The notes under the pieces are model-generated. The model made no database searches and was not told the origin of the DNA. It saw only the letters and a list, made by a program, of their open reading frames with translations. 64,000 nt of DNA from a virus (Duplodnaviria > Caudoviricetes): the IMG/VR virus record IMGVR_UViG_3300028591_003737, positions 105,615 through 169,614 of that record, one strand, 5' to 3'. Of this stretch, positions 38,944 to 57,490 are shown one piece after another; within the stretch, counting starts at the first letter, position 1; every line of letters begins with the position of its first letter. Made by a program: the position numbers and the translations under genes.

Positions 38944-40689
38944 TTAAGCTCTTCTGAGTCTCATCATCTGAGCATATACATTGTTATAATGACTTTCAAG
39001 AACGTCCTTTGGTTCTTCAACTGACTGAGGAGTTTTTGCTGAAGCAAAATCTACACTCTGCCAGAATGATTCAAGAACACCTTCTTTCTTAAAGTCATAA
39101 GCCTTTGACATTCTAACTATTTCGTCTTGTCTTTCTTCTGAAAGAGCATTCCAAGATGGCTGATATTCAGCAGGCATATTTTCAACTACGTATACACCAG
39201 CGAACTTATCTTGTGCTTTCTGTTCTTTTACAAGCTGTGAGATAGCTTCATCTTTGTTTTCAAGGCTTTCAATAAGAGCGTCAATATCTGAAAGCTTAGC
39301 AGATTTCTGACTTTCCATGAAAGCAGAAACATTTTCATTTACTTTTGCTTCGATATTAGCATTGTTTTCAGGAGTATATTCTTCATTAATCCAACCTTCG
39401 ATAACTGGAGCAAATTCTTCACAAACCCAATTCTGAACTTCTGGTGCAAATTCTTCACATACCCAATTCTGTACTTCTGGAGCAAATTCTTCACATACCC
39501 AGTTCTGTACTTCTGGAGCGAATTCTTCTGTAATCCAATTCTGTACTTCAGGAGCGAATTCTTCGCATACCCAATTCTGAATAGTTTCTGAGAAATTCTC
39601 AACTACCCAATTTTGAACATCTGAATTAATAGACTCTGAAAGTTCTGTCTTAAATTCAGGAGCAAATTCTTCTGTAACCCATTTTTCAATCTTTTCATAC
39701 TGAGGAGCTTCATAAGCATTTACCTTTTCATTTACACCATTAAGTGTTTCATTAACACTATTAATAGAAGTATTAACACCTTCAAGTGTTTCATTAAGTT
39801 TTGCAATTTCTGCATCCTTAGCTGTTAATGATTCTTGAGCAACATGAAGTTCAGCTTCTAAACTAGTTACCTTTTCAGTAAGTTTATCAATTGCTTCTTT
39901 TAAATCATTCATTGTAGTATCTTGACTATTTTTGTTATTATCATCTTTATCAGATGTATCTTCTTTATTTTCATCGTCATTTTCTTCATCTTCTTTCTTG
40001 TCATCACCTTCTTCAGATTTTTCATCTTTCTTAGGTTCGTTTTCAGAAGAAGAATCTCCTTCACCTTTATCCTTGTTGTCTTTATTATCTTCTTCACCAA
40101 GTAAATCATCGTCTTCGCTTTCATCTACGATAGCCCAGATTTCATTACCGTCTTCAGCAGATTCATTTAAACATTCAAGGGTTTGATTGGCTTTAAGGTT
40201 TAATTTAGCTTGAGCAAAACCAGGTGTACCAACTAAGTCATAAGTTTTAATAGTAGAAAGTGTTACATTACCATTTTCATCAATAGAACCAGCACCTCTA
40301 GAAGAAATATAAAGAGGAACACCACCAGCAACAATAGCTTTTGCATCTTTACCTTTAGCAGTATCAAGTAAAAGAATTGTACCAGTAATTGTACCATCTT
40401 CATTCATTTCAATAGACTCAATCTTATGTGAAACATTATTAAGATTAATATTCATAGTATTAGGATGTTCAAGTTCTCCAAGAAGACCTTCAGTTGAAAT
40501 AACTTTTTGAAGATTTTCAACCATTAATCCGTAATTTTCCTTTGAATATATACGTCTATTTTCATTCTTAATTCCGCAAACACCAAATACACCTGTCATA
40601 CGAACTTCATTAGTATTCTGAGACTCCTGGATCTGCAATCCTGTTGTAGGTCCTAAAGTTTCAAATACCATGCATTTTTTATTTGCCAT
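38944..40689 (-). CDS. Prohead protease (gp21-like) fused to a scaffold/core (gp22-like) region
   Basis: N-terminal GVFG..KNENRRIYS..LGELEHP..VSHKI..ISSRGAGS..TYDLVGTPG, followed by an acidic linker and coiled coil. Confidence 0.9.
   Translation of the reverse strand: MANKKCMVFETLGPTTGLQIQESQNTNEVRMTGVFGVCGIKNENRRIYSKENYGLMVENLQKVISTEGLLGELEHPNTMNINLNNVSHKIESIEMNEDGTITGTILLLDTAKGKDAKAIVAGGVPLYISSRGAGSIDENGNVTLSTIKTYDLVGTPGFAQAKLNLKANQTLECLNESAEDGNEIWAIVDESEDDDLLGEEDNKDNKDKGEGDSSSENEPKKDEKSEEGDDKKEDEENDDENKEDTSDKDDNNKNSQDTTMNDLKEAIDKLTEKVTSLEAELHVAQESLTAKDAEIAKLNETLEGVNTSINSVNETLNGVNEKVNAYEAPQYEKIEKWVTEEFAPEFKTELSESINSDVQNWVVENFSETIQNWVCEEFAPEVQNWITEEFAPEVQNWVCEEFAPEVQNWVCEEFAPEVQNWVCEEFAPVIEGWINEEYTPENNANIEAKVNENVSAFMESQKSAKLSDIDALIESLENKDEAISQLVKEQKAQDKFAGVYVVENMPAEYQPSWNALSEERQDEIVRMSKAYDFKKEGVLESFWQSVDFASAKTPQSVEEPKDVLESHYNNVYAQMMRLRRA
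39368..39690 (-). repeat. 33-bp tandem repeat encoding QNW(V/I)(C/T)EEFAPEV
   Basis: Five near-identical units plus three degenerate ones within the protease-scaffold gene. Confidence 0.9.
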
Positions 40690-40729
40690 ATTATATATTA
40701 TGTATTATATTTGATATTTCCTAATTACT

Positions 40730-40800
40730 TTATTAAAAATAAATAAAAAATAAACTAATTGAAAAATGATGACAGATCTCAAATAGTTTATTAAAAATAA
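40730..40800 (-). promoter_or_regulatory. Two late-type motifs TTATTTTTAATAA (40730-40742, 40788-40800)
   Basis: Upstream of the protease gene. Confidence 0.55.
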
Positions 40801-40810
40801 TATTAATTTG

Positions 40811-41470
40811 TTAACTCGCAATTTCTTTTGCTATTAAATCTTCTGCTAATACTTCTCCTGTTTCAATATCTACATTTTCTCCATTTTCTAATGATTGAAC
40901 TTTTATAGTACTATTACTTTCAGATTTAGAAAGTGATTCAATAAATTCTTTAGAACCACGTACAATAACTGAACCATCTTCAAGATTAGTTTCTTTAGGT
41001 TTCTCAGAGAATGTCTTTTCAGCATTATCCTGCATATCTTTAAATATTGCCTCAACACTTGCAACAATTTCATTTAATTGTTTCTGGATATCAAGCATTG
41101 ATTTTTGAAGTGCTGTAAGAGATGTATAAAGAGCACCTTTACCAGCATTCATTGTAATATTTTGTATAAGAGTATCTTGGGCCTTTTCATTTACACTCTG
41201 CATTTTAAGGAGCATACGGATTTGGTCCATTTCTTGAGAAATCTTATTTGGAATATATGGATGTTCTTCAATATACTTTTGATCAAAATAATAATTAGAA
41301 AGACGTTCTGTTATTTGTTTAGCTTTATCTTTAGCTTGTCCTTCTACTTCATCTAAATCAATAACTAATGTTGGGGTTTCAAGAACATCATCAGGAGAAT
41401 CATAAACAGGATTCTCTTCACTTCTTAAGAAAAGATCATTAAGAGCGTCTCTATCTTCATTTGTAACCAT
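40811..41470 (-). CDS. Probable terminase small subunit (gp16-like)
   Basis: Helical hairpin (ALYTSLTALQKSMLDIQKQL) then VIVRGSKEFIESL, resembling the gp16 C-terminal motif; next to head genes; late motif at 41490-41502. Confidence 0.5.
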   Translation of the reverse strand: MVTNEDRDALNDLFLRSEENPVYDSPDDVLETPTLVIDLDEVEGQAKDKAKQITERLSNYYFDQKYIEEHPYIPNKISQEMDQIRMLLKMQSVNEKAQDTLIQNITMNAGKGALYTSLTALQKSMLDIQKQLNEIVASVEAIFKDMQDNAEKTFSEKPKETNLEDGSVIVRGSKEFIESLSKSESNSTIKVQSLENGENVDIETGEVLAEDLIAKEIAS

Positions 41471-41562
41471 ATAACATTTAATATTTTTACAAATAAAAAT
41501 AAAAAAATAAAGATAACTAATGTAAATTAGCTATCTTTTTATATAAAATATGTAAATTTTTC

Positions 41563-41745
41563 TTATGAAGTCATCAACTTTGAAAGAGATTCAATGTGAT
41601 TTTTAAGATTTATTTTAGTATCAGGACAAACATCTTCAAGAAAAGGAGAACTCATTTCTTCAGGAGTAAGTTCAGTTTCAAGAACTGTTTTCATAACAGT
41701 CATATAAGCGAAATTCTCAAATCTTTTCTGTTTTGTATATGCCAT
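41563..41745 (-). CDS. Small hypothetical protein
   Basis: 60 aa with its own early-type promoter (41769-41796) and terminator (about 41506-41540). Confidence 0.65.
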   Translation of the reverse strand: MAYTKQKRFENFAYMTVMKTVLETELTPEEMSSPFLEDVCPDTKINLKNHIESLSKLMTS

Positions 41746-41792
41746 ATTGTCTATTGTTTTACACTATTAATATAGTATTAAAACTAAATAAT

Positions 41793-42116
41793 TCAATACT
41801 TAGGATAAATATATAATATCATATTGTTTGTTTTACAAGGTTTTTCAACATCTAAATTTTCTTCAATCCATTTAGCAACTGGTTTATATATCCATCTATG
41901 TTGTTTCTGTACTGATAAGAAAATATATTTCTTTGATTTACCTACGTTAATATATTCTTCATAATTATCAAATTTTACTAATCCAGAATATTTTTCAATA
42001 ATATATTTTTTAATCTCTGAAATAAATTTATTGTTTATTTCATCAATATCATCTAATACTTCTGTTTCTTTATTTAAGTGAAGTTTTTCTAATATGTAAT
42101 TATTGATATTAATCAT
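41793..42116 (-). CDS. Leader-bearing small protein (EKLHLNK family)
   Basis: MININNYILEKLHLNKE. Confidence 0.75.
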   Translation of the reverse strand: MININNYILEKLHLNKETEVLDDIDEINNKFISEIKKYIIEKYSGLVKFDNYEEYINVGKSKKYIFLSVQKQHRWIYKPVAKWIEENLDVEKPCKTNNMILYIYPKY

Positions 42117-42118
42117 TT

Positions 42119-42547
42119 TTATTTATATAATTTTTTATTACCATCAATATATTCATAATATTCATCATATAGTTCTCTACCTGATAAATGCATACTATCA
42201 TTACCAAAAGTTATAGTTACTCTACTTCTATTAACTAACCATTCAATAATTCTTCTATGTTTTTTAATTAATAAAAATATATCACCATCTCTTCTATTAA
42301 TATCAGACATACTAAAACTATATTGGAAATAATTATTTAAAATATTAATAATTTCTTCATAATCTATTCTACCCCAATATATTTGTTTTTGAAATGTAGA
42401 ATTTTCTTTATATATTTTATATATCATAATACATAAATATGTAGCAATGATAATATCTCTAACTTTATCAATATTATCAATTTCAGATGATTCAAAATCT
42501 TTATTTAAATGTAATTTTTCAGATATATAATTATTAATGTTAATCAT
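42119..42547 (-). CDS. Leader-bearing small protein (EKLHLNK family)
   Basis: MININNYISEKLHLNKD. Confidence 0.75.
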   Translation of the reverse strand: MININNYISEKLHLNKDFESSEIDNIDKVRDIIIATYLCIMIYKIYKENSTFQKQIYWGRIDYEEIINILNNYFQYSFSMSDINRRDGDIFLLIKKHRRIIEWLVNRSRVTITFGNDSMHLSGRELYDEYYEYIDGNKKLYK

Positions 42548-43035
42548 TTTTCTTCTAATTCTTCTTTAATTTTTTTAATATCTGCTTTTGTATTTATTTT
42601 GGTATTTCCTGGATCATATCTAAATGATGAAAATAAAAAAAGTTTATTACGATTAATATAATCATCTATCATTTTAATTGCTTTATCTACTTTCATTAAT
42701 GCAGACCACTCACCATTCTTTTTATAAAATGCAAATGTATTTTGTATATGAGGACTTGAATGAGTATGATCTTCAAATGTATATTCTATCTCTCTGACTA
42801 CTTTACCAGTTCTATAACTCTTTAAAATTATTGTTTCTTCATTTATTTCTTCTATAATACCAACAAATAATTTAACATATTTATATGAAGTATTTGTTTT
42901 AGGAGAACTACATATCCCTAACACTTTATCTCCAACATGTATATTATATATATCACAATGTATAGAAGAAGTATTAGTATCTATATTCTTATCTAAATGT
43001 AATTTTTCAAATATGTAGTTATATATCTGTTTCAT
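42544..43035 (-). CDS. Leader-bearing small protein (EKLHLNK family)
   Basis: MKQIYNYIFEKLHLDKN. Confidence 0.75.
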   Translation of the reverse strand: MKQIYNYIFEKLHLDKNIDTNTSSIHCDIYNIHVGDKVLGICSSPKTNTSYKYVKLFVGIIEEINEETIILKSYRTGKVVREIEYTFEDHTHSSPHIQNTFAFYKKNGEWSALMKVDKAIKMIDDYINRNKLFLFSSFRYDPGNTKINTKADIKKIKEELEEK

Positions 43036-43508
43036 TATTTCTTTTCAAATACTCTTAATAAAGGTTCAAGACCATTTTGTGCTGCTATATCAATAAGGCA
43101 TTCATCTTTTACATATATAAAATGATCTGCACCACCATCATCTACCCAAGTATATTCTGATTTAGCTCCTGAAATAGCAATATTTTTAAATTTTTTTAAT
43201 ATCTCATTATTTTCAGAATAAAATTCTTTTTGTTTCTTATTTACTTTCCAATCATCTAAATTATAATCTTGTGCATATACATTAAAATCAATTACATCAT
43301 TATCTTCAATCCATTTAAGTATTATTGAACTCATCTCATCTTTTCTAGTATTATCAGTAATTGTAAAATTCTTATAATGATTATCATATTTATCAAATGA
43401 TAATATACAAATAATTTTACCAAGAAGTTTTCCTTTTAATACATCACCACTTTCTAAATCTTTATTAAGATGGAGTTTTTCTAATATATATGTACTTAAA
43501 TTAATCAT
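43035..43508 (-). CDS. Leader-bearing small protein (EKLHLNK family)
   Basis: MINLSTYILEKLHLNKD. Confidence 0.75.
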   Translation of the reverse strand: MINLSTYILEKLHLNKDLESGDVLKGKLLGKIICILSFDKYDNHYKNFTITDNTRKDEMSSIILKWIEDNDVIDFNVYAQDYNLDDWKVNKKQKEFYSENNEILKKFKNIAISGAKSEYTWVDDGGADHFIYVKDECLIDIAAQNGLEPLLRVFEKK

Positions 43509-44572
43509 TTATTATCTGTTATTATTTTATTTATTCTTTCTTGGAATTCTTTAGATATTACAAATCCTCTTTTCTTTTCTTTATAAAATAACTTAATAAA
43601 TAATTCTAATAATTGTTTATATACATTACCCTTTTGACGAATTGCTTTTTGTAATTCAGGAATAACTCTATCAACTTGTACAGCATATGTTTTAGAAGTA
43701 TTAAGTCTAATTTTTGCACCAAGATTAATTAATTTATTAAATATCTTAGTATCACTCATCATATAAAAGAATGCTCTTTGTAATTTCTCTAACCAACTAA
43801 CATCAACATTCCATTCTGGATCTTTTGCATTTTCAAGATAATCTACAAAAGTATTATATATCTTCTCATAAGTATCAGCATTCTTTTCTCTTTCTTCTTC
43901 ATTTCCTTTATCTCTATCTTTCATACTCTGTCTATAAGTAGGATCAACTATTTTATATTCAGCAATCTTTTCACCAACTGGAAAGAAGAATACAATACCT
44001 TCAATATAATCATCAGCAGCAGATATAAGTTTATCTGGGAAATTCTTATAAGTATCAAACATTGAATGAACCCAATTAATAAATTCTTTCTTTTCTGGAA
44101 CAATAGCACTTGAAAGAATATTTACGATACTGTCAATCTGTTCATCAGTAAGTTTACCCTCCCAAAGAGTAGGCATTACATCAGTACCAAGTTCATCAGC
44201 TATTTCTTTAATCTTATCAGCAGACTGAATAAAATTATCATTCTTATCAATAATAGCAGTAAGAAGAAGTAAATTATCAATTACTTCAAATGTCAAAAAC
44301 TTATAGTTTTTAAATACATCTACATGTTTTTCAACATGAGCGATAGCATCATTAACTGGTTTTGAGAATAATCTTGTATAGTCATCAATCTCTGGACCAA
44401 CATGAGTTTCATCACCAGAACGACCATGATATTCTAATGAATCTGATTGTTCATTATAAAGAACTTGAAATGGTTTACCATCTACTTTAAGATTGATTTT
44501 AATACCATCAAGTTCAAGAAGTTTTTCACAAACTTCTGGTTTCTTTTTATATATATCAATAAAATGTTCCAT
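43505..44572 (-). CDS. ATP-dependent RNA ligase-like (covalent nucleotidyltransferase) protein
   Basis: Motif I KVDG, Ia GRSG, III TFEV, PTLWEG, IV EGIVF, V YKIV. Confidence 0.65.
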   Translation of the reverse strand: MEHFIDIYKKKPEVCEKLLELDGIKINLKVDGKPFQVLYNEQSDSLEYHGRSGDETHVGPEIDDYTRLFSKPVNDAIAHVEKHVDVFKNYKFLTFEVIDNLLLLTAIIDKNDNFIQSADKIKEIADELGTDVMPTLWEGKLTDEQIDSIVNILSSAIVPEKKEFINWVHSMFDTYKNFPDKLISAADDYIEGIVFFFPVGEKIAEYKIVDPTYRQSMKDRDKGNEEEREKNADTYEKIYNTFVDYLENAKDPEWNVDVSWLEKLQRAFFYMMSDTKIFNKLINLGAKIRLNTSKTYAVQVDRVIPELQKAIRQKGNVYKQLLELFIKLFYKEKKRGFVISKEFQERINKIITDNK

Positions 44573-44586
44573 AATATATTATTTAA

Positions 44587-45489
44587 TTAATCTTTTACTT
44601 TACCATAACTTCCATCATCTTTATAATAAGTACATGGAAAATCTTCTTTTTCAACAGGAACTTCACATTTAGGATCATTTATATATTCCATATAAAATCT
44701 CTTTTCAGTTCTTTCAAGAACTTCTTTACCCCAAGGCCATAAATCTGAATGAATTGCTTTCCAAAGTCCTTCTACAGTATTAAATATCTTAGGATCAATA
44801 TCATTAGTATCAAATATAAATCTCATTACATTCATAGGATCATTAGAAACAAGTTCTTTAAATTCTTGCTTAGCAGTACTTACATATTGACCTTTCTTTC
44901 CAACATGATTAGCAAGATATTTGAATACACCTTCTTGATTAAATGTATATCTCCATTTTTTCTTTACATCTCCATTGTCAAAATATTCATTCTGTGCATC
45001 TTTTACAGGAATACTTGATACAATATGTTGAATAAGATATACTTTAGGAGCAGCTTTATATTTACTTTCTCCTTTCTTAAAATCTGGACTTGAGAATCTC
45101 CATTTAGCCCAATCAATATTATCTGTAAACATAAAATCAACTTGAGCAACTCCTTTCTTTCCTTCTTTATCCCATTCATATCCAATAGATACAATCTTAG
45201 GAGTAGTAAAAGGATTTAATTCTGATTCAGGAAATACTTCCTTAATCATATTCATAAGTTCTTCTCTATTATTTAAATCAATAGCGATATCAATATCACC
45301 ATTAAAATCATCATCTTTCTTTTTACCAATACTTCCAAGAGGAGCCATTTTTACACTACTTTTCCAAGCATGTACTTTATCTTCTATTTCTTTATATATA
45401 AGAGGAGTTATATATGCAGGAATTGGTTGAGAAGAAACTGCATGTCCACTTTCTAACATTAAATTAATATATTCAATTATTGATTTCAT
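44587..45489 (-). CDS. Pol-beta-superfamily nucleotidyltransferase with CTS-like leader
   Basis: LGSIGKK..GDIDIAI and QVDFMF (GS, DxD, third Asp); starts MKSIIEYINLMLE. Confidence 0.75.
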   Translation of the reverse strand: MKSIIEYINLMLESGHAVSSQPIPAYITPLIYKEIEDKVHAWKSSVKMAPLGSIGKKKDDDFNGDIDIAIDLNNREELMNMIKEVFPESELNPFTTPKIVSIGYEWDKEGKKGVAQVDFMFTDNIDWAKWRFSSPDFKKGESKYKAAPKVYLIQHIVSSIPVKDAQNEYFDNGDVKKKWRYTFNQEGVFKYLANHVGKKGQYVSTAKQEFKELVSNDPMNVMRFIFDTNDIDPKIFNTVEGLWKAIHSDLWPWGKEVLERTEKRFYMEYINDPKCEVPVEKEDFPCTYYKDDGSYGKVKD

Positions 45490-45491
45490 AA

Positions 45492-45806
45492 TTATTTATC
45501 TTCATCTTTATTTTGTAATGTTGATAATGAAACAAAATGTTTACAAAATTTAGTTAAATTTTTAAAATCTCTTTGCATTAATATTTTAAATCCTAAAATC
45601 ATTAATGCTCCTCCTAATTGTATAGGATGCCAGATTTTTTTAGCTTCTATACCTTCTTTTTCTAAAAGATTACGTAATTTAATTTCATCAATTTCTAATT
45701 CTTGAAGAAAATTAGAAAATATTTTATCTATATCTTTATTTTCTAAACTTTCAGAAATTAATAAATTATTTACTGGTTTATTTATAAATTCTTCTAATGA
45801 TTTCAT
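45492..45806 (-). CDS. Leader-bearing hypothetical protein
   Basis: MKSLEEFINK..LLISE. Confidence 0.65.
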   Translation of the reverse strand: MKSLEEFINKPVNNLLISESLENKDIDKIFSNFLQELEIDEIKLRNLLEKEGIEAKKIWHPIQLGGALMILGFKILMQRDFKNLTKFCKHFVSLSTLQNKDEDK

Positions 45807-46723
45807 TTTATATATTCTATAGCTTTATTTAATAATTGTGTAAATTCATCAACTAATGATTTATCAGTTTTCATTTTAAACTGCCAATCTTCAAGATATG
45901 ATTTCTTAATATTTTCCATCATTTCTTTACTTCTTCTTGGATATTTATCAGATACAAGATAATCAAGAAGAGATTCAAAAGAATTACAATCACTTTGTTC
46001 TGATTCTTTACCAAGAATTAAATCAAGTATCTTTCTTACATTAGTAGTAACTTTTTCTTTTGAAACTGTTTTAGGTGAAGCAAGTGGTTTTGTTTTACCT
46101 TCAAATGATTTTTTAACTATCAATAATCCTTCTGCTTGTGATAATTGATATTTATAAAATTCTTTAACTTGTCCAGAATATTTACCATTAAATTCATCAG
46201 TAAATTTAACTTCTTCTTTTCCTTCAACTGGAGTATTTGATACAACAGCCATTAAAAGATTAGACTGATACATTCCTTTATATTTTGATTCTCCTTTAGT
46301 AAAATCTGGTGAATTATAAGCAAATTTAGCAAATTCAACATCATTTACAAACATAAAATCAACTTGAACAATCTTTTCTGTTCCATCTTCATCATATTTA
46401 TATCCAATATTAAATACATGAAGACCTTCATTTATATTTCCAATTTCACTTCCAAATTGTTTCTTTACAAAATCAATAACTTTATCTTTATCTTCCCAAG
46501 GTAATTCAAGAGCAATATCAATATCTCCTGAAGTTTGTTCTTTAGATTTCTTACCTGTTGAACCAAGTGCTGAAGCTTTACATTTAAATTCTTTAGTAAT
46601 AGAATTAATAATTTCATCTGCTACTACTTTAGCAAGATCACCACGAATAGGTGATGCATTTTCAACGGAATGTCCACCTTCAACTATTAAAGATTCTTTT
46701 ATATATTCAATTATTGATTTCAT
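45803..46723 (-). CDS. Pol-beta-superfamily nucleotidyltransferase (paralog) with CTS-like leader
   Basis: LGSTGKK..GDIDIAL and QVDFMF; SPDF.KGESKYK is shared with 44587..45489; starts MKSIIEYIKE. Confidence 0.75.
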   Translation of the reverse strand: MKSIIEYIKESLIVEGGHSVENASPIRGDLAKVVADEIINSITKEFKCKASALGSTGKKSKEQTSGDIDIALELPWEDKDKVIDFVKKQFGSEIGNINEGLHVFNIGYKYDEDGTEKIVQVDFMFVNDVEFAKFAYNSPDFTKGESKYKGMYQSNLLMAVVSNTPVEGKEEVKFTDEFNGKYSGQVKEFYKYQLSQAEGLLIVKKSFEGKTKPLASPKTVSKEKVTTNVRKILDLILGKESEQSDCNSFESLLDYLVSDKYPRRSKEMMENIKKSYLEDWQFKMKTDKSLVDEFTQLLNKAIEYIK

Positions 46724-46724
46724 A

Positions 46725-47540
46725 TTAATAAATTTCTTTATTTACTTCTTCTTCTATTCTATTAATAAAATCTGAACATCTTTTTATAAATTTATCATCT
46801 CCATCATAATATTGTTTATTCTCTTCTAATCCTTTTTTTGCTCCTTTTATAAAAGAACTTAAAACATTTCCAAAGAATTCTACTCCCCATTCACCAATCC
46901 AAGATTTACCATAATTTTCAATATCTTGTAATCTTGTTTTTGATTCATTAACTATATATTCATTAATTGATTTCATATTATTATTTTGTATATATTTCAA
47001 TATATTGCTTTCTTTAATTGATGATATTTGTTTTTTAAATTCAGAGAATAAATCATGAGCTTCTTTAGGCATTAATTCTTTAAATTTTTCTTCATCATCA
47101 TTTTTTATTGCTTCTCTAACATCTGTTGCTGAACCATATCTTTTAGTAATATAAAATTCTGGTTCATCTATTCCAAGTTCATCTTTAATAGATTTACCTT
47201 TCATTAATTTTTTATATCCATCAATTCTATCTTCACCAGCAAGCCAAAGAACTGGTTCATATCCATTTTCAATACATACTCTACATATTGTCATTGGCAT
47301 TGGTCTTCTTATCCAATTAATTCCTTCAATATATTCATATTTATCTACAAGACGTTCAAGTTCTTTCTTTGTCAATTCATCATCAAATGGTTTTCTTGAA
47401 TCAAACTTTTCATTATGAATATACATAATATAAACTGGAAGACCATTCTTTTTGAATGCATCTTCACAAGCTTTCAAGTGACCATTATGAAATGGTTGAA
47501 AACGACCTGGGAATATATTTACTTTTTTAAGTTCTGACAT
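46725..47540 (-). CDS. HIGH-motif cytidylyl/adenylyltransferase (NadM/NMNAT-like) with C-terminal leader-bearing module
   Basis: PGRFQPFHNGH, AGEDR, SATDVREAI; internal MKSINEYIVNE at 46976. Confidence 0.75.
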   Translation of the reverse strand: MSELKKVNIFPGRFQPFHNGHLKACEDAFKKNGLPVYIMYIHNEKFDSRKPFDDELTKKELERLVDKYEYIEGINWIRRPMPMTICRVCIENGYEPVLWLAGEDRIDGYKKLMKGKSIKDELGIDEPEFYITKRYGSATDVREAIKNDDEEKFKELMPKEAHDLFSEFKKQISSIKESNILKYIQNNNMKSINEYIVNESKTRLQDIENYGKSWIGEWGVEFFGNVLSSFIKGAKKGLEENKQYYDGDDKFIKRCSDFINRIEEEVNKEIY

Positions 47541-47549
47541 AATATTTAT

Positions 47550-49445
47550 TTATTTTTTTACAAAACCAATTGTTCCATGTCCATTCCAATCTGATGGACC
47601 ACAACCAGCAATATCAAATTTAAATACTTGTTTATTTAATGGATATAATTTCAAAATAATATCTAATTTTTTATCTTCTTTGTTCCATTTTATTTCAGTA
47701 TCTATTTGATTAGATTCTAAATAATTATTTAATAAAATAGATAATATATTAGAAGTATCATTTTCATTATTTATTTCATTTGAATATAAATTATTTAATT
47801 CATCTACACATCTAATAATTAATGGGTACATAATTTTTGAATAATTTTCTTGATAAACTTTATTCTTTCCTCCACTTTTAATATAATAATCAGTATTTTT
47901 TATATCCTTTTCAGAACTTAATCCATCCCAAGATATAAAATTCCAATCCATATTACCTTTTATTTTTGTTTTATTACTTATACCAATTAAAATATCTTTT
48001 ATCTCATCTTTATTTTTATAATTATCTATTAAATATAATGCTCTATCTTTTTCTGGATAATCCCAATTATCTTTTTTTAATTGTAAAATATTACATAATT
48101 TTTTAAAATTCTCATCATCTTCAAATAATGACCAAGATAATTTCCATATATTTCTATTTTGATCAGTTTTTGCTAAACCGCTTCCATCTTTTTTTAATTT
48201 ATAAAATATTTTCATTCTTTCAAGAAATTCATCAATTTCTTGTTTAGTAATATTAAATGAATCAGCTATTTGATAAATATTATTTAAAATATCTTTATCT
48301 TTATTATCAATTTCTTTAAAAATATTTATCATTATAGAAGAAATACTTGGTCTATGTCCATTTTTAGAATCTTTACTTTTAATAGAAATACCTATTCCAT
48401 TAAAATATAAATCATTTAAAAATTCACTACCATTATCTGGCCAATATAATGAATTTCTATCTTCTTTTTTACAATATTTATATAATAACAATCCTGCTAA
48501 TACTTCTCCAAATCCTACTTCTAATGAATTTCTATCTTGTGGAGATAATGTATTATAAATATTATTATACTTTTCTGTTAAATTAATTGTATGTTTTATT
48601 TCTAAATTATTTTTTGATAATTTAGATAAAATATCTTTATCAATTATATAATTACTAATATTAGAATTTAAAATTTCTTTTGATATATATGATATAAAAT
48701 CTGAATATATACCATCTTCTATAGTTATATTTTTCTTTGAGTTATTTGTAATTAATGATAATATTCTTTCTATATCTTTATTATTTTGTAAATTAAATCC
48801 ATCTTCAATCGAATTTGAAGTTAATCCTAATGCTTTTGGTTGTACTGATTCTGTTTTTATAAGAATTCTTTCTCCTTTACCATTTGAATCTGTATTACAA
48901 ATATAAAATTCTTTATCTTTCCAAGTAACTTTTACACTAAGGAAACTTCTAGAAGATTTTTCTCTATTTATTTTTGGTTCATCTACTTTAAAATCATCCA
49001 TTCCAACAATATTACCTCCCAAAATTTTTTCAATATTTTCTTTAAAAGTTGATGAATGACCAAATTCTCCTCTTATATATTCTTCAGGATATTTTCCAGA
49101 ATTCCAACCTTTAACTATATTTGGCCCAGTTTTTATATAAAAAGATACATTTCTTTTTCCTAAAATATTTAAATATGTTTTTAATGAATTAGCATTTGAA
49201 GTACAAATAACTTTTGAACCCTTTTTATAAATTGGTTCATTATTATCATTAAATCCTTCTATAGGAAATTTAGTATTATAAATAGAATATTTTTGATCTT
49301 TAGAAGGAAATAAATAATCATATAAAGAAATATTATATTTTGACATAATACTTCTCATAGCATCATATTTATTTTTTGATGTTTCTTCTATGTCTTCAAA
49401 AATATTTATAATATTTTCATTAATATATTCTATAATACTTTTCAT
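47550..49445 (-). CDS. Large leader-bearing protein with putative PD-(D/E)XK nuclease-like core
   Basis: Likely start is MKSIIEYINE (49445); FGEVLAG..WPDNGSEFLNDLYFNGIGISIKSK. Confidence 0.5.
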   Translation of the reverse strand: MKSIIEYINENIINIFEDIEETSKNKYDAMRSIMSKYNISLYDYLFPSKDQKYSIYNTKFPIEGFNDNNEPIYKKGSKVICTSNANSLKTYLNILGKRNVSFYIKTGPNIVKGWNSGKYPEEYIRGEFGHSSTFKENIEKILGGNIVGMDDFKVDEPKINREKSSRSFLSVKVTWKDKEFYICNTDSNGKGERILIKTESVQPKALGLTSNSIEDGFNLQNNKDIERILSLITNNSKKNITIEDGIYSDFISYISKEILNSNISNYIIDKDILSKLSKNNLEIKHTINLTEKYNNIYNTLSPQDRNSLEVGFGEVLAGLLLYKYCKKEDRNSLYWPDNGSEFLNDLYFNGIGISIKSKDSKNGHRPSISSIMINIFKEIDNKDKDILNNIYQIADSFNITKQEIDEFLERMKIFYKLKKDGSGLAKTDQNRNIWKLSWSLFEDDENFKKLCNILQLKKDNWDYPEKDRALYLIDNYKNKDEIKDILIGISNKTKIKGNMDWNFISWDGLSSEKDIKNTDYYIKSGGKNKVYQENYSKIMYPLIIRCVDELNNLYSNEINNENDTSNILSILLNNYLESNQIDTEIKWNKEDKKLDIILKLYPLNKQVFKFDIAGCGPSDWNGHGTIGFVKK

Positions 49446-49449
49446 AATT

Positions 49450-49920
49450 CTATACTTTTTTATCTTCTTTAACTGGAATTGGTGGAATTGGTACAATATT
49501 CAATGCAGGAACATTTACTTGTACACCCCTTATGTCTTCCATATTCTTTGGTGGATTTGATTCTCCAAAATTTTCTTTATAATATTTATCCAAATCAATA
49601 CTATCTTTTGGAATATATGGAATTGGAACAATTGTCAAAAGAGGAACTTTAAGTTGTGTTGTCTTTCCATTAGCATCAGTAAATTTTATTTTACCGTCAG
49701 ATTCAACAATATTTGGATGATCAAACTTAGGATATTCTTTAATTAAATCTTCAAGAAAATCTTTAGTAAATACTCCAGGTAATTGTTCTAATTTTTGAAC
49801 ATGATTATTCATTAATTCATCAACAGTCATATCTGCCGCATCAACTACTCTTACGGTGTTTGGTAATATAAACTTACCAATTTTTTCTCTAAGCTTATTA
49901 AACATATTTAATTTATTCAT
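49450..49920 (-). CDS. Hypothetical Pro-rich protein
   Basis: 156 aa with two VP.L.IVPIP repeats. Confidence 0.65.
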   Translation of the reverse strand: MNKLNMFNKLREKIGKFILPNTVRVVDAADMTVDELMNNHVQKLEQLPGVFTKDFLEDLIKEYPKFDHPNIVESDGKIKFTDANGKTTQLKVPLLTIVPIPYIPKDSIDLDKYYKENFGESNPPKNMEDIRGVQVNVPALNIVPIPPIPVKEDKKV

Positions 49921-49939
49921 TATCTTTTAAAATTTTATA

Positions 49940-50581
49940 TTAATCTTTCCATGCTTGAATAACCTTCAAATTATCTAATTGAAGTCCACGAGCATATTGT
50001 ATATTTTTGGTATCATCATCAACAAAGATGACTTTATCATATTTTGAGCAAAGATCTTTAAGAACATTTGCTTTCTTTTCTGCATCAGATTTTCCAGGAT
50101 AATCTTTGAATTCATCATTGATAGCATGAGAAAGTGTTTCTTTAAATATATCTTCTAATTCTTTAAGATTACCTTCATCATCTTTATATCTTAAGAAATC
50201 ACGAAGTGCTTTTTTAACGGCTTCTTCACAACCTCTAGCAGTTAAGAAACAGAAATGATAACCAGCTTTAATATAAGAATCCATAATCTTAAGATTCTTT
50301 ATAAGTGGTGTTCCTTCAATAATTGAATTATATACTTTTACTTCATCACGAAAATCTCTAAAGTCAAACCAATCTCTATGATTAGCAATATCTGGATCAA
50401 CAGCAAATTCTTCTGTTGTTAATGCTATTTCTTTTTTAGTAGTAGGATCTTTTTTATAAATCTTTATACTATCTGGTTTTACTTTAAGAAGAGTATCATC
50501 TATATCAAAAACAATCAAGCCACTCACTGATTTAGGAAGTGGTTTGATTGCCTCATATATATATTCTATAATGCTTTTCAT
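49940..50581 (-). CDS. HAD-superfamily phosphatase with CTS-like leader
   Basis: FDIDDTL, FLTARG, K, FVDDD; likely start is MKSIIEYIYE (50581), just downstream of the late motif. Confidence 0.8.
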   Translation of the reverse strand: MKSIIEYIYEAIKPLPKSVSGLIVFDIDDTLLKVKPDSIKIYKKDPTTKKEIALTTEEFAVDPDIANHRDWFDFRDFRDEVKVYNSIIEGTPLIKNLKIMDSYIKAGYHFCFLTARGCEEAVKKALRDFLRYKDDEGNLKELEDIFKETLSHAINDEFKDYPGKSDAEKKANVLKDLCSKYDKVIFVDDDTKNIQYARGLQLDNLKVIQAWKD

Positions 50582-50607
50582 TTTTATATAATTAATATGA
50601 TTTAATA

Positions 50608-50620
50608 TATATAAAAATAA
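50608..50620 (-). promoter_or_regulatory. Late-type motif TTATTTTTATATA
   Basis: Heads the 50581-to-41793 operon. Confidence 0.6.
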
Positions 50621-50625
50621 AATCT

Positions 50626-50970
50626 TTATTCCCAATAATTTTTAGGATTTAAACAATTATCTCCAAAAGTGCCGCATAAATCCTTTCTACCATCAACATA
50701 ATGCCATATATCAAGAGCAATATCTTTAGTAGTTTTTATTTCTTCATTTAAAACAAATCTAAGATTTAAATCAGTATTTATTTCATCTAATAATTTTTGA
50801 TTAAAAATTTTAATAATCCAATAAAGATGTTCTATATGATTAAAATTACCTTGTTCATCTTCTATTCTTTTATAACAATCAGATATTTCATAATCTAAAT
50901 GAAATTTAATTACTTCATCATCTTTAATATTCATTAAATCTTCAATATGTTCTAATTCTTTTACTCGCAT
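50626..50970 (-). CDS. Hypothetical protein
   Basis: 114-aa ORF. Confidence 0.65.
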   Translation of the reverse strand: MRVKELEHIEDLMNIKDDEVIKFHLDYEISDCYKRIEDEQGNFNHIEHLYWIIKIFNQKLLDEINTDLNLRFVLNEEIKTTKDIALDIWHYVDGRKDLCGTFGDNCLNPKNYWE

Positions 50971-51128
50971 ATCAATTCAACTTTAGTAATTTTAACTTCA
51001 TCAGTAAGTCCATGTTTATATATACCTACTTCAACTGCATCATATTCATCATAGACATTATCCACATAGAATTCACCTTTTGATGAATAACTATCACCAT
51101 ATAAATAAGAAACTTTATACGTTGCCAT
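50961..51128 (-). CDS. Small hypothetical protein (55 aa, not in ORF track)
   Basis: MATYKVSYLYGDSYSSKGEFYVDNVYDEYDAVEVGIYKHGLTDEVKITKVELICE*; early-type promoter at 51164-51193. Confidence 0.6.
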   Translation of the reverse strand: MATYKVSYLYGDSYSSKGEFYVDNVYDEYDAVEVGIYKHGLTDEVKITKVELICE

Positions 51129-51189
51129 ATATTATTGATATATTTTTTTAGTTTATATATAATAATATAGAAAAAGAGGTTGAATTAAA

Positions 51190-51831
51190 TCAACCTCTTT
51201 TAGTATACCATGATGGTTTTTTCTTTAATTTATTACAATCTTTAAACATTAAAGTTTTTTTACCAATTCTTTTATAATCCCAAGATTCTAAATCTCTATT
51301 AAAATTCTTACAACCCCAGAACATATAATCACAATCACAACCATTTTCTCTGAATTTCCAATTAGATATATCTTCATTAAATAATTCACAATTCATGAAC
51401 ATACTTTTTGTACTTCTACAATTATCTAATTCCCAATATCTTAAACCATTTCCTTCAAAGTTTTTACAATTCAAGAACATACCATACATGTCTTGAACAT
51501 TATGTACATCCCATTTAGATAAATCACAATCAAAGTTTACACAATCTCTAAACATTTCATCCATATCTTTTACATTAGATACATCCCAATCAGATATATT
51601 AATATTATATATCTTATCTCCGAATGGTTTAAATAAATCACTCATATAATCTATTTTAGATACATCAATATCATTTAAATCTGCATCTCTTCCTCTTTCA
51701 TTAATAAGTCTTTCAAGAAGTTCACTTAATTCTTTTTTATTTTCTGGAAAGAATTGAGGTTCTACTTCTTTTTTAACTTCTGAATGATTAAACTTAAGTT
51801 TTTCTATTATGTAGTTATCTATATGTTTCAT
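51190..51831 (-). CDS. DUF285/BspA-like repeat protein with CTS-like leader
   Basis: Repeats ISDWDVSNVKDMDEMF / LSKWDVHNVQDMYGMF / FNEDISNW; starts MKHIDNYIIEKLKFN. Confidence 0.8.
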   Translation of the reverse strand: MKHIDNYIIEKLKFNHSEVKKEVEPQFFPENKKELSELLERLINERGRDADLNDIDVSKIDYMSDLFKPFGDKIYNINISDWDVSNVKDMDEMFRDCVNFDCDLSKWDVHNVQDMYGMFLNCKNFEGNGLRYWELDNCRSTKSMFMNCELFNEDISNWKFRENGCDCDYMFWGCKNFNRDLESWDYKRIGKKTLMFKDCNKLKKKPSWYTKRG

Positions 51832-51834
51832 GAA

Positions 51835-52134
51835 TTATTGTTTAATATATTTTACTATAAATTCAGCAATTTGATCTTTTATTTTATCTTTCTTATCATC
51901 TTGTAAAAATTCATCATCAGATGGTTGATATGCAAGATATTCTTTTGGATATTTCTCTGCTAAACAATCTGATAATTTCTTTAATCTACCTTCAACATCA
52001 CAAATTCCATCAAGTAATTCACTATAATTTTCTTTAGTAAAGTTTTTACTTGACTTAAACATATTTATTGTTATTTCACACCAAAGAGGATGTTTCTTTA
52101 ATTCCTCAGTAATATATTCATTAATCTTTATCAT
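51835..52134 (-). CDS. Leader-bearing small protein
   Basis: MIKINEYITEEL. Confidence 0.7.
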   Translation of the reverse strand: MIKINEYITEELKKHPLWCEITINMFKSSKNFTKENYSELLDGICDVEGRLKKLSDCLAEKYPKEYLAYQPSDDEFLQDDKKDKIKDQIAEFIVKYIKQ

Positions 52135-52136
52135 AA

Positions 52137-52595
52137 TTAAATTACTCCTGAAATTATAAAACTTTTTGTATCATCAGTTATTGAAAATCCAATAATTCTA
52201 TCTGATAAACAATATCTTTCAACATACTTAGATAAATTTCCATTATCTAAAATTACTTCTGTACTAGTTTGTGAAGCAACTATATCATTTATTTTATCTC
52301 TATCTTGTTTTGAATATTTTCCATAACTTGGAATATACTTTTCAATAAAATCTTTACTTTCTTCAGATAATTTTCCTTTATTTGGATAATCAGTAGTTCC
52401 TCTATAAAGATATTTAAAATCTTCAATTTTAGAAACATGCATATCTTTAAAAAGTTTTTTAATATTTTCACTTTCTTTTAACTCTTCCCAATCAAATAAT
52501 TCAGATATAGTTTTTAAAAAATCATCCATATCTGATACTTTAGTATTCTTATCTAAATGAAGTTTTTCTATTATATATGTATTAAGTTTTATCAT
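52137..52595 (-). CDS. Leader-bearing small protein (EKLHLNK family)
   Basis: MIKLNTYIIEKLHLDKN. Confidence 0.75.
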   Translation of the reverse strand: MIKLNTYIIEKLHLDKNTKVSDMDDFLKTISELFDWEELKESENIKKLFKDMHVSKIEDFKYLYRGTTDYPNKGKLSEESKDFIEKYIPSYGKYSKQDRDKINDIVASQTSTEVILDNGNLSKYVERYCLSDRIIGFSITDDTKSFIISGVI

Positions 52596-52610
52596 TATTT
52601 AATATTTTCT

Positions 52611-53006
52611 TTATTTAATATTTTCTTTTAAAAAATTATAAAAACTATTAAAGAGATTATTCATATTATCTCTATCATCAAGATCATTATATTCTATTTT
52701 ATTTTTTGATGACCATCCATTTTCATCTGGCCAATCTATAGTATCATTATAAATTAAAGATAATTCTAAATGATGCATATCAGAATATCTAAATATATGA
52801 ATAAATTTTTCGGTATCTGATAAATAAATATTTAAAGCACTTTTATGATCTTTTCCTTTTAAATATCTAGATATAACTTTTTTATTATCAGATAATTCTA
52901 AATCACTTAATTTAGAAATAGATAATAAATTTATATTAGATTCTTTTGCTTCACTGTTTTTATTAAGTTGAAGTTTCTCAATTATATATGTATTAAGTTC
53001 TTTCAT
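52611..53006 (-). CDS. Leader-bearing small protein (EKLHLNK family)
   Basis: MKELNTYIIEKLQLNKN. Confidence 0.75.
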   Translation of the reverse strand: MKELNTYIIEKLQLNKNSEAKESNINLLSISKLSDLELSDNKKVISRYLKGKDHKSALNIYLSDTEKFIHIFRYSDMHHLELSLIYNDTIDWPDENGWSSKNKIEYNDLDDRDNMNNLFNSFYNFLKENIK

Positions 53007-53704
53007 TATGCTCCTAATTCTTTTTTTAATTCATCAATAAATTGTTGACTCCATTTAAAATTTTTATCATTTACCCTATAATTATAATATGTTCCTCCAA
53101 TTATAAATATTATTTCACATTTAGCACTTTTATTCTTATAAGTTACTTTAAAAGGTAAAGCAATTTTTCCATTTCTTTCTTTCATTATTTCAAGAGCTTC
53201 TTTTGAATAACTATCATAATCAGTATAATTAAATTCTATTCTATACTTTTGATTCTTAATTATTACATCTAATAAAGTTTCAATAACATCATAATATTCT
53301 GCTGCTAATTTAGTAGGTAAATCATGTAATTCTTCTGGTTTAGCTAATTCATAAGCATTTATAAAATCTTGAGGTTTAGCATTATATTGATCTATTCCTC
53401 TATCAACAAAATATGAACCAAAATTACCTGGAAGAGAAATTAGTGTATTTTTATAAATATATGGTACAGAATTAGTCATTATCATTATTGTAACCCATTT
53501 TTTAATACAACTATTAGCACTTAAACATTTATTAGAAAGATTTTTACATCTTTCTCTATCATAACCAACACTATATCTTGATGTAGAATTAAAAATATCT
53601 TTTACCTTTTCTTCATCTTCTTTAGTGATAGTATATGTATTGATATCTTTAATATCTTTATTAAGTTTAAGTTTCTCTACTATATAATTATCTAATTCTA
53701 TCAT
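53006..53704 (-). CDS. Leader-bearing protein (EKLHLNK family)
   Basis: Likely start is MIELDNYIVEKLKLNKD (53704). Confidence 0.75.
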   Translation of the reverse strand: MIELDNYIVEKLKLNKDIKDINTYTITKEDEEKVKDIFNSTSRYSVGYDRERCKNLSNKCLSANSCIKKWVTIMIMTNSVPYIYKNTLISLPGNFGSYFVDRGIDQYNAKPQDFINAYELAKPEELHDLPTKLAAEYYDVIETLLDVIIKNQKYRIEFNYTDYDSYSKEALEIMKERNGKIALPFKVTYKNKSAKCEIIFIIGGTYYNYRVNDKNFKWSQQFIDELKKELGA

Positions 53705-53705
53705 A

Positions 53706-53897
53706 TTATCCTTTATGTGCAAAATATGCTTTTAATGCATTTTCAGCATCTGTTTTTGTATGATATTTAGCTTTCCAATATCCTCGTTTAGGTGTATTAG
53801 TTCCTTTACCAGCATGTCCTTTTATTCTCCAATAATCACCAACTTTTACAATGACATCTTCAAGTTCTTCTGTTAAATATTGTTTTAATGTTTTCAT
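53706..53897 (-). CDS. Leader-bearing small basic protein
   Basis: MKTLKQYLTEEL; late motif at 53899-53911 immediately upstream. Confidence 0.7.
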   Translation of the reverse strand: MKTLKQYLTEELEDVIVKVGDYWRIKGHAGKGTNTPKRGYWKAKYHTKTDAENALKAYFAHKG

Positions 53898-53914
53898 ATA
53901 TATAAAAATAAAAA

Positions 53915-57424: not shown

Positions 57425-57490
57425 ACTATATAAAAATAAAAAATCATAGCGATATGCTATGATTTTCATATATTATATTTAGATTTTAAA

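Follow-up and report, generated by a model that had tools for sequence, protein, structure and literature searches.

RNA-ligase-associated nucleotidyltransferases of the Pol-beta superfamily (RlaP) add one or two nucleotides before ligation (PMC12776372, PMC7824862). In modules of RNA ligase and RlaP (PF10127), the Pol-beta enzyme is genomically tied to an enzyme with the ATP-type RNA ligase fold, following a restore-then-seal logic, and HAD phosphatases are common accessories (PMC7824862, PMC12776372). Here, we analysed a cassette of nucleotidyl-transfer genes with a comparable arrangement, located at positions 43505-50620 of a 64,000-nucleotide stretch (hereafter, the window) of the phage contig IMGVR_UViG_3300028591_003737. 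The window is the right-hand 64 kb of this 169.6-kb IMG/VR contig, which is estimated to be 60% complete, with a GC content of ~26%. The source is an uncultured jumbo T4-related myophage from the ruminant gut, and near-identical DNA is found in sheep and cattle gut metagenomes from ~15 studies. The cassette encodes two nucleotidyltransferases (A and B), an adenylyltransferase with a HIGH motif (the HIGH enzyme), a protein with the RNA ligase fold (the ligase), a HAD phosphatase and three further proteins of 631, 156 and 104 amino acids (aa). All the genes named in an initial annotation of this DNA were recovered at their assigned positions, on the minus strand. We favour, with a probability of roughly 45%, a reading in which the cassette represents a virus-specific module that would extend and seal nucleic-acid ends and would be partly loaded into the capsid.

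The cassette differs from RlaP modules in several respects. Its nucleotidyltransferase family has no match to PF10127 (0 of 42 members at E up to 0.1) and adopts a palm and thumb fold of the family X type, while its ligase belongs to a very divergent branch. The HIGH enzyme is the steadiest partner, no kinase is present, and the genes are virus-restricted and bear a leader of the capsid-targeting type. This leader recalls the T4 internal proteins IPI-IPIII and Alt. In T4, too, the N-terminal leader spans ten residues with matching key positions, a protease of the gp21 type is encoded, and one leader precedes diverse, unrelated cargo among head genes. In the present case, however, the putative cargo is made up of nucleotidyl-transfer enzymes, roughly tenfold more genes are tagged, and one of the leaders sits inside a protein.

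Other described systems share part of the enzyme set. In T4 (Pnkp and Rnl1), a HAD-type phosphatase likewise accompanies an enzyme with the RNA ligase fold, but the cassette has neither a kinase domain nor detectable sequence similarity to T4, and its phosphatase lies outside the conserved core. Phage NAD+ salvage (NadV with NadM-Nudix or NadR) also employs a HIGH enzyme with an archaeal-NMNAT-like GRFQPFHxGH motif. The cassette enzyme departs from it in lacking both a Nudix and a kinase domain, in the absence of NadV from the contig, in scoring under the curated NMNAT cut-offs, and in having a polymerase-like enzyme and a ligase as its constant neighbours. African swine fever virus (ASFV) Pol X, which consists of palm and thumb only and is encoded together with a ligase by a large DNA virus, aligns with the model of nucleotidyltransferase A at Z 10.7 with a root-mean-square deviation (rmsd) of 2.7 over 157 of 176 residues. 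Their identity is ~13%, and the cassette enzyme has an extra C-terminal helical domain and an RNA-ligase-like partner.

Three linked enzyme families form the core of the cassette

Nucleotidyltransferase A (306 aa, 45803-46723) begins with the leader MKSIIEYIKE, and nucleotidyltransferase B (300 aa, 44587-45489) with MKSIIEYIN. The two are paralogs with 32% identity (E 3e-38) in which the GS...DIDIA...QVDFMF motif is kept. G54, S55, D67, D69 and D122, that is, the Pol-beta signature and the third carboxylate, were invariant in 42 homologues including both paralogs, and PF01909 matched 12 of these 42 family members (best E 1.3e-5). Both the superfamily and the paralogy initially assigned to the pair are thus confirmed by their identity and invariant catalytic residues.

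The structure model of A reached a predicted local distance difference test score (pLDDT) of 92, with the leader alone being poorly ordered. Foldseek searches with this model gave Pol beta and Pol lambda as top matches, and in a second aligner the nine best ranks were all occupied by family X polymerases (Z 10.0-12.2), the best chain from outside family X having a Z of 9.5. The family X matches comprised Pol beta, lambda, mu, TdT, bacterial PolX and ASFV Pol X, and extended over the palm and thumb. The palm-thumb part of Pol beta (3lqc_B) aligned at Z 12.1 (rmsd 3.0, 170 residues), Thermus PolX at Z 11.7 and TdT at Z 11.1. Residues 21-250 of A correspond to residues 144-334 of Pol beta; the model begins at the palm and contains neither helix-hairpin-helix fingers nor an 8-kDa domain. 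At the sequence level, the family X palm profile (PF14792) matched weakly, in 3 of 42 members (E 0.017), which does not place the family within family X. In a viral fold library, the nearest neighbours of A were uncharacterised phage proteins, the first of them from Agrobacterium phage Atu_ph07, followed by giant-virus Pol X.

CCA-adding or cyclic-nucleotide-forming functions had been suggested for the two enzymes, with a possible division into CC- and A-adding activities. The fold comparison argues for neither function, since terminal uridylyltransferases, CCA-adding enzymes and CD-NTases all ranked below family X. CCA-adding enzymes aligned with A at Z 7.8 (1miv) and 7.2 (4x4n), with rmsd values of 5.7-7.0 and a query protein of only ~300 aa, and CD-NTases were further away. 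No CCA-family Pfam match was found among the 42 members, and the division of labour between A and B received no support. We rejected a CD-NTase identity, as the nucleotidyltransferase profile retrieved chance-level matches only from the PDB, CdnC (E 2) being one of them.

The model fold and the motif residues identify the ligase (355 aa, 43505-44572) as a covalent nucleotidyltransferase with the RNA ligase fold. Across 25 homologues, K29 (in KVDG), E96, E191 and G192 were invariant and K207 nearly so, covering motifs I, III, IV and V, and the broader family showed the consensus EKxDG, FxFE, IEGxVF and KLVDP. The model (pLDDT 91) has an all-helical C-terminal domain and no OB fold. Foldseek ranked T4 Rnl2 first (E 2.9e-6), then fungal Trl1, archaeal Rnl3, Naegleria NgrRnl (Rnl5) and T4 Rnl1. 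In the second aligner (VIA), RNA ligases scored Z 7.5-8.8, the alignments at Z 8.6-8.8 spanning 160-199 residues, and DNA ligases 5.8-6.9. The ligase fold initially read from the KxDG and EGIV motifs is, therefore, borne out by the model, the Foldseek matches and the conserved motif residues. The match to PF09414 was below threshold (14 bits, cut-off 27), the best family member reaching E 6e-4, and a tblastn search of GenBank phages with the ligase found nothing. As a separate observation, the T4 reference record labels gene 57B (L006:7953-8411) 'RNA ligase', which looks like an odd automatic name.

The HIGH enzyme (46725-47540, catalytic part 46980-47540) is NMNAT/PPAT-like. It matches PF01467 (E 1.8e-7) and contains the motifs GRFQPFHNGH and GSATDVR, and G12, F14, P16, G20, H21, S137 and R142 are invariant in its family. 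A profile built from 21 sequences of this family retrieved the Methanocaldococcus NMNAT MJ0541 first (E 1.4e-10), with PPATs close behind (1e-8). The protein scored above the cut-off of the generic domain and far below those of the NMNAT equivalogs (31.6 vs 127, 27.9 vs 409 and 24 vs 181 bits). No Nudix or kinase domain is present in it, and NadV (PF04095) was not found on the 170-kb contig (~60% complete). In a survey of sequenced phages, every phage with NadM also had NadV (PMC9503650). Judging from its sequence, 'NMNAT-like' is a fair description of the enzyme, in line with the superfamily first assigned to it. The accompanying proposal that it restores NAD+ fared less well, given the NMNAT cut-offs and the lack of NadV on the contig, and is only one possibility. 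A second HIGH-motif gene with a PF01467 match lies elsewhere on the contig, outside the window (71614-72069, minus strand; 376-aa frame, E 2.7e-7).

Synteny in other large phages was assessed with iterated profile searches over 82 loci (our locus labels begin with L). The HIGH enzyme was found in 58 of them, making it the most constant partner of the nucleotidyltransferase family, and the ligase in 32, where it stands beside the nucleotidyltransferase as in RlaP neighbourhoods. All these partners are on the same strand as the nucleotidyltransferase gene and most are adjacent to it. The linkage expected from the initial annotation thus holds for a conserved core that consists of the nucleotidyltransferase, the HIGH enzyme and the ligase only. 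This core is virus-restricted, almost no copies having been found in cellular genomes. The nucleotidyltransferase family comprises more than 140 protein clusters, nearly all of them unannotated, and occurs on 172 viral contigs; all the nearest Atlas clusters are 100% viral. A scan of 185,579 prokaryote species (one genome each), prefiltered on a short peptide pattern, gave a single match, on a contig of a metagenome-assembled genome from the goat gut.

Gene fusions tie the three families together. The HIGH enzyme and the nucleotidyltransferase are joined in proteins of ~500 aa (P0007-type) and also in a 97%-identical relative (L008:7050-13592), in which a leader remnant links the HIGH enzyme straight to nucleotidyltransferase A. 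Ligase-HIGH fusions are present in three loci (L033, L040 and L051). At another locus (L069:9998-13174), one protein of 1058 aa contains an N-terminal nucleotidyltransferase, a DUF6267 domain in the middle (E 2.7e-47) and a C-terminal HIGH enzyme. This DUF6267 domain occupies the usual place of the ligase and carries a KIDG motif, and DUF6267 may be a ligase-fold family; an hhalign comparison of the domain with the ligase profile gave no match. Literature searches found no papers on DUF6267, or on a family X enzyme and a phage RNA ligase in connection with the virion. On a 377-kb contig (L002), A, B, the ligase and the HIGH enzyme are found together at 45-61% identity, with the B ortholog (57% identity) adjoining the A ortholog. 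The set thus moves as a unit, since on this contig it is kept together beside nrdD rather than head genes.

A megablast search of GenBank phages with the cassette found nothing. Among these phages, the nucleotidyltransferase was detected in Lak megaphages only, in which it occurs on its own, together with a weak match in Sinorhizobium phage Phosso. Prevotella phage Lak-B6 (L007:8010-8987), whose region was read with TAG as glutamine, encodes a single untagged nucleotidyltransferase and has no HIGH or ligase gene within 8 kb. Cultured Stenotrophomonas phages have a clear homologue of the HIGH enzyme (profile E 1e-24), as exemplified by the T4-like phage Moby. The Moby locus (L091:2375-5492, equivalent to MN095772.1 36907-40024) is flanked by a capsid decoration gene on one side and a baseplate hub gene on the other and has no leaders. 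Directly upstream of the HIGH homologue, it encodes a 268-aa protein with KMDG and EGVI motifs and, three genes upstream, a 306-aa protein with MGGN..., GS...GDVDIAV and QIDLE motifs; a 314-aa protein is also encoded there. The 306-aa protein shows weak BLAST similarity to the nucleotidyltransferase family (E 3.6e-5 in a small database) and is probably a distant nucleotidyltransferase, a lead taken from its motifs rather than a demonstrated homology.

The HAD phosphatase (213 aa, 49940-50581) carries the leader MKSIIEYIYE, its real start being the ATG at 50581. It contains all four HAD motifs, namely DIDDT (residues 26-30), LTARG (later T), K and a C-terminal VDDD. It matched Pfam DUF2608 (30 bits, cut-off 22.6), Hydrolase (E 2.6e-5) and phrog_415 (E 5e-10). 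The last is a phage family annotated as polynucleotide kinase, a label that we take to mean the phosphatase part of that family; the kinase (P-loop) part is absent within the 213 aa. Searches with the protein found no match in the T4 genome record at E up to 10 and, by tblastn, nothing in GenBank phages. No HAD motif was found in the extended module proteins of relatives using a regular-expression search.

A leader resembling the T4 capsid-targeting sequence

The leader MKSIIEYIxE is carried within the cassette by the HAD phosphatase, both nucleotidyltransferases and the 631-aa and 104-aa proteins. The ligase and the 156-aa protein lack it, and in the HIGH enzyme it is internal. The HIGH frame has no stop before the internal ATG and reads through into an in-frame leader, MKSINEYIVNE (residue 189, from 46976), followed by an 83-aa tail. 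This tail and the 91-aa open reading frame (ORF) found at the same position in L002 have only the leader in common.

Compared with MKTYQEFIAE, the N-terminus of T4 IPIII as read from the T4 record, the leader is identical at five of ten positions (M1, K2, E6, I8 and E10) and differs only conservatively at positions 3, 4 and 7. Its residues 4 and 7 are hydrophobic, residue 8 is I and residue 10 is E, and it ends in an I-x-E site. Positions 4, 7, 8 and 10 are those named for T4 targeting and gp21 processing (PMC9026906; also PMC3012670 and PMC10229621). A prohead protease gene of the T4 gp21 type is located 3 kb downstream of the cassette (38944-40689, minus strand; 581 aa). Its product matches PF03420 Peptidase_S77 (E 4.7e-9, 36.5 bits against a cut-off of 27) and phrog_207 (E 4.6e-40). 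The likeness to IPIII and the presence of this S77 protease support the initial view of the leader as a capsid tag of the T4 type.

In total, ~32 genes on the contig have this leader or a longer form, ...YI.EKLHLNK. Leaders of this kind also open 26 nucleotidyltransferase and 18 HIGH genes of relatives, which sit amid arrays of ~200 other tagged ORFs. In divergent contigs the letters of the leader drift while the pattern stays, as in MKHVKLFEQFINE. In the 97%-identical relative, other ORFs with a leader take the place of the 631- and 156-aa genes, and the gene array appears to have been reshuffled at the leaders. The ligase, already noted as leaderless in this phage, has the leader in none of 25 distinct sequences. 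The likeness of the tag to T4 and its conservation make packaging its most likely function.

Possible roles of the module

According to the favoured reading, the one or two family-X-like nucleotidyltransferases of the core would add nucleotides to a 3'-OH end, and the RNA-ligase-fold enzyme would seal a 3'-OH/5'-phosphate break via a lysyl-AMP intermediate. The HIGH enzyme might adenylylate a phosphate end or produce an adenylylated cofactor, for example NAD+, and the HAD phosphatase, an addition in the lineage of the source phage, could clear 3'-phosphates. The tagged nucleotidyltransferases, the HAD phosphatase, the 631-aa protein and the internally tagged HIGH enzyme would load into the prohead core, where the S77 protease would trim their leaders, and would later be ejected with the DNA. 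The untagged ligase would either stay in the producing cell or travel bound to a partner. We favour this extend-and-seal function because the closest described logic is that of the RNA ligase and RlaP pair. As the substrate, RNA is slightly favoured over DNA, because the ligase resembles RNA ligases and the contig carries at least 26 tRNA genes, all without an encoded 3' CCA. A role on DNA ends is also conceivable, because the nucleotidyltransferases resemble family X. The tRNA genes form an array at the left contig end (283-6819), outside the window, and a further tRNA apparently runs off that end.

Several observations weigh against this reading. The ligase, which would be needed for sealing, has no tag. 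Neither in or near the module nor in the extended module proteins of relatives was a 5' kinase found using a regular-expression search for Walker A and HAD motifs; ends produced by metal-independent RNases could, therefore, not be joined. The HAD gene stands beside the module only in the two closest relatives (L008 and L009) among the 82 loci examined, and we found no precedent for a HIGH enzyme in end repair. Searches of the PDB with the narrow and broad ligase family profiles matched no solved ligase significantly, and the ligase profile had no match in the T4 genome. In support of the reading, metatranscriptome contigs from two studies match the ligase, both nucleotidyltransferases, the HIGH enzyme and the 156- and 631-aa genes, mostly exactly; such RNA-library contigs may, however, contain carried-over DNA, and the depths of these libraries are unsuited to ranking genes.

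The resemblance of A to family X could instead reflect repair of ends and gaps in the injected genome. The family-X-like enzymes would then fill or tail ends, possibly with ribonucleotides, the HAD phosphatase would remove 3'-phosphates and the ligase would seal. This would parallel the ASFV set of Pol X and ligase or bacterial end joining of the LigD type, and would act at genome entry against nicks, restriction cuts and exonucleases. In keeping with it, family X DNA polymerases, including the ASFV enzyme built of palm and thumb only, take all nine top places among the structural matches of A, giant-virus Pol X proteins are among the viral fold matches, and enzymes delivered with DNA would be expected to meet DNA ends first. 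We nevertheless consider it unlikely, as the ligase scores closer to RNA ligases than to DNA ligases, has a helical C-terminal domain in place of an OB fold and lacks a capsid tag, helix-hairpin-helix and 8-kDa domains are both missing from the nucleotidyltransferases, and the HIGH partner is left unexplained. A strict kit for tRNA repair and NAD+ supply, close to what the initial annotation had envisaged, seems improbable. In such a kit, the HAD phosphatase and the ligase would heal and seal cuts made by anticodon nucleases, the nucleotidyltransferases would rebuild CCA and the HIGH enzyme would act as an NMNAT. Jumbo phages do combine ligases, HAD phosphatases and nucleotide-restoring enzymes (PMC7824862). 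The RNA ligase fold, the match of the HAD protein to a family annotated as polynucleotide kinase, the tRNA genes devoid of CCA and the archaeal NMNAT as best solved relative of the HIGH family are all consistent with this kit. However, heal-and-seal repair of the T4 Pnkp/Rnl1 type requires a 5' kinase, and none was found here or in the extended module proteins of relatives. The HAD phosphatase is retained in the closest relatives only, the ligase is untagged, and neither T4 Pnkp nor Rnl shows detectable similarity to the cassette proteins, all of which argues against the T4-like healing originally proposed. CCA-adding enzymes also fit A worse than Pol X does, the tRNA-binding body and tail domains being absent. 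As for the HIGH enzyme, the NMNAT equivalog cut-offs are widely missed, PPATs score almost as high as NMNATs, and no NadV gene is present on the contig, although the NadM-bearing phages surveyed all had one (PMC9503650); its partnership with the other core enzymes also goes unexplained.

The shared N-terminus itself might be a recombination or translation-start cassette of a hyperplastic gene array rather than a packaging signal, the enzymes then being cytoplasmic. The ~32 carriers on 170 kb far exceed the few of T4, and partners are swapped at the leader, as illustrated by the HIGH-A fusion of the 97%-identical relative and by the unrelated 83-aa tail in the source phage. Moreover, the ligase, and the HIGH enzyme in L002, do without a leader, and Lak phages and Stenotrophomonas phage Moby have untagged versions. 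This explanation is doubtful in view of the identities and conservative changes shared with IPIII and of the gp21-type I-x-E site, which is accompanied by a gp21-type protease gene. In addition, the pattern persists across divergent phages despite changes in its letters, as expected of a functional peptide. It is also conceivable, though somewhat unlikely, that the trio is a virus-only, capsid-delivered machine of undescribed chemistry, acting at genome entry on the nucleic acid of the phage or of the host. In that case, the HIGH enzyme might supply the very divergent ligase with a dedicated AMP donor, or act on a polynucleotide phosphate end by adenylylating or capping it, and the family-X-like enzyme would tail or fill the end, protecting or readying the nucleic acid of the phage or disabling that of the host.

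If the extend-and-seal reading is correct, many large T4-related phages of the gut, the rumen and other habitats would pre-load enzymes that process nucleic-acid ends into their heads. The 'internal protein' concept of T4 would then take in a set of repair-type enzymes besides small inhibitors and Alt. The reading would also imply three uncharacterised, fusion-tied enzyme families that are nearly confined to viruses: a minimal nucleotidyltransferase resembling family X, a very remote enzyme with the RNA ligase fold and a HIGH enzyme of no known role beside a ligase. These families may serve as reagents, and bench tests of the question could use cultured Stenotrophomonas phages, which likely encode a distant version.

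Other cassette proteins and the transcription unit

Relatives of the 631-aa tagged protein (47550-49445) number no more than a handful, and no fold is supported for it. The protein matched nothing in Pfam, PHROG, NCBIfam or the PDB, either alone or as a seven-sequence profile, and its Atlas model is poor (pLDDT 0.43). The sole hints from this model are restriction enzymes at 0.84-0.86 (R.HinP1I 0.86), which is below trust level. A conserved D...SxKxK stretch is compatible with a nuclease and proves nothing. With no family, no solved relative and very few relatives, the 'nuclease-like' label first given to this gene is unsupported. The 156-aa protein (49450-49920) contains two copies of a proline-rich motif, (L)xIVPIPxIP, and has a sub-threshold DUF2589 match only, and the 104-aa protein (45492-45806) has no family match. 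Homologues of these three proteins were found in 0 of the 82 related loci.

Read in the direction of transcription, the cassette immediately precedes the genes for the protease, the capsid protein and the sheath. The major capsid protein is of the T4 type, with 34-38% identity to the capsid proteins of Sphingomonas phage PAU, Tenacibaculum phages and Lak megaphages, and the tail sheath protein, also encoded in the window, has 999 aa. Gaps between cassette genes range from a 4-base overlap (-4) to 19 bases. The only terminator-like site within 40500-54500 is a strong hairpin at 51201-51172 (minus strand), with a 12-pair stem, four G-C pairs and a T-rich tail. It resembles an intrinsic terminator, ends the DUF285 gene before the cassette and marks the upstream limit of the unit, and the search between 51172 and 40500 found no other. 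A single transcription unit is plausible for the cassette, because its genes are tightly spaced and no internal terminator was seen. Past 43505, the unit runs on without a break into four small leader-bearing ORFs (157, 163, 142 and 107 aa; 41793-43508, minus strand), whose starts overlap or abut and whose N-termini read M..L..YI.EKLHLNK.

An exact copy of the promoter-like motif TTATTTTTATATA is located at 50608-50620 (minus strand), 27 bases upstream of the HAD start codon. The window contains nine exact copies, mostly intergenic, and 19 sites with at most one mismatch, against 4.5 expected. This motif had been described as late. That label is an assumption drawn from the neighbourhood, because no TTATTTTTATATA site was found ahead of the capsid, sheath or protease genes. 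A sigma-70 promoter scan of the region performed no better than on shuffled sequences.

Two neighbouring genes are worth recording. The gene preceding the cassette (51190-51831, minus strand) encodes a leader-bearing protein of 213 aa made of DUF285 (BspA-like) repeats (E 2.3e-41), with a clear terminator after it. Further upstream, an exact copy of TTATTTTTATATA (57427-57439, minus strand) falls inside the 5' end of ORF 55568-57469, which encodes a 633-aa amidase-domain protein, and the true start codon of this ORF probably lies further downstream.

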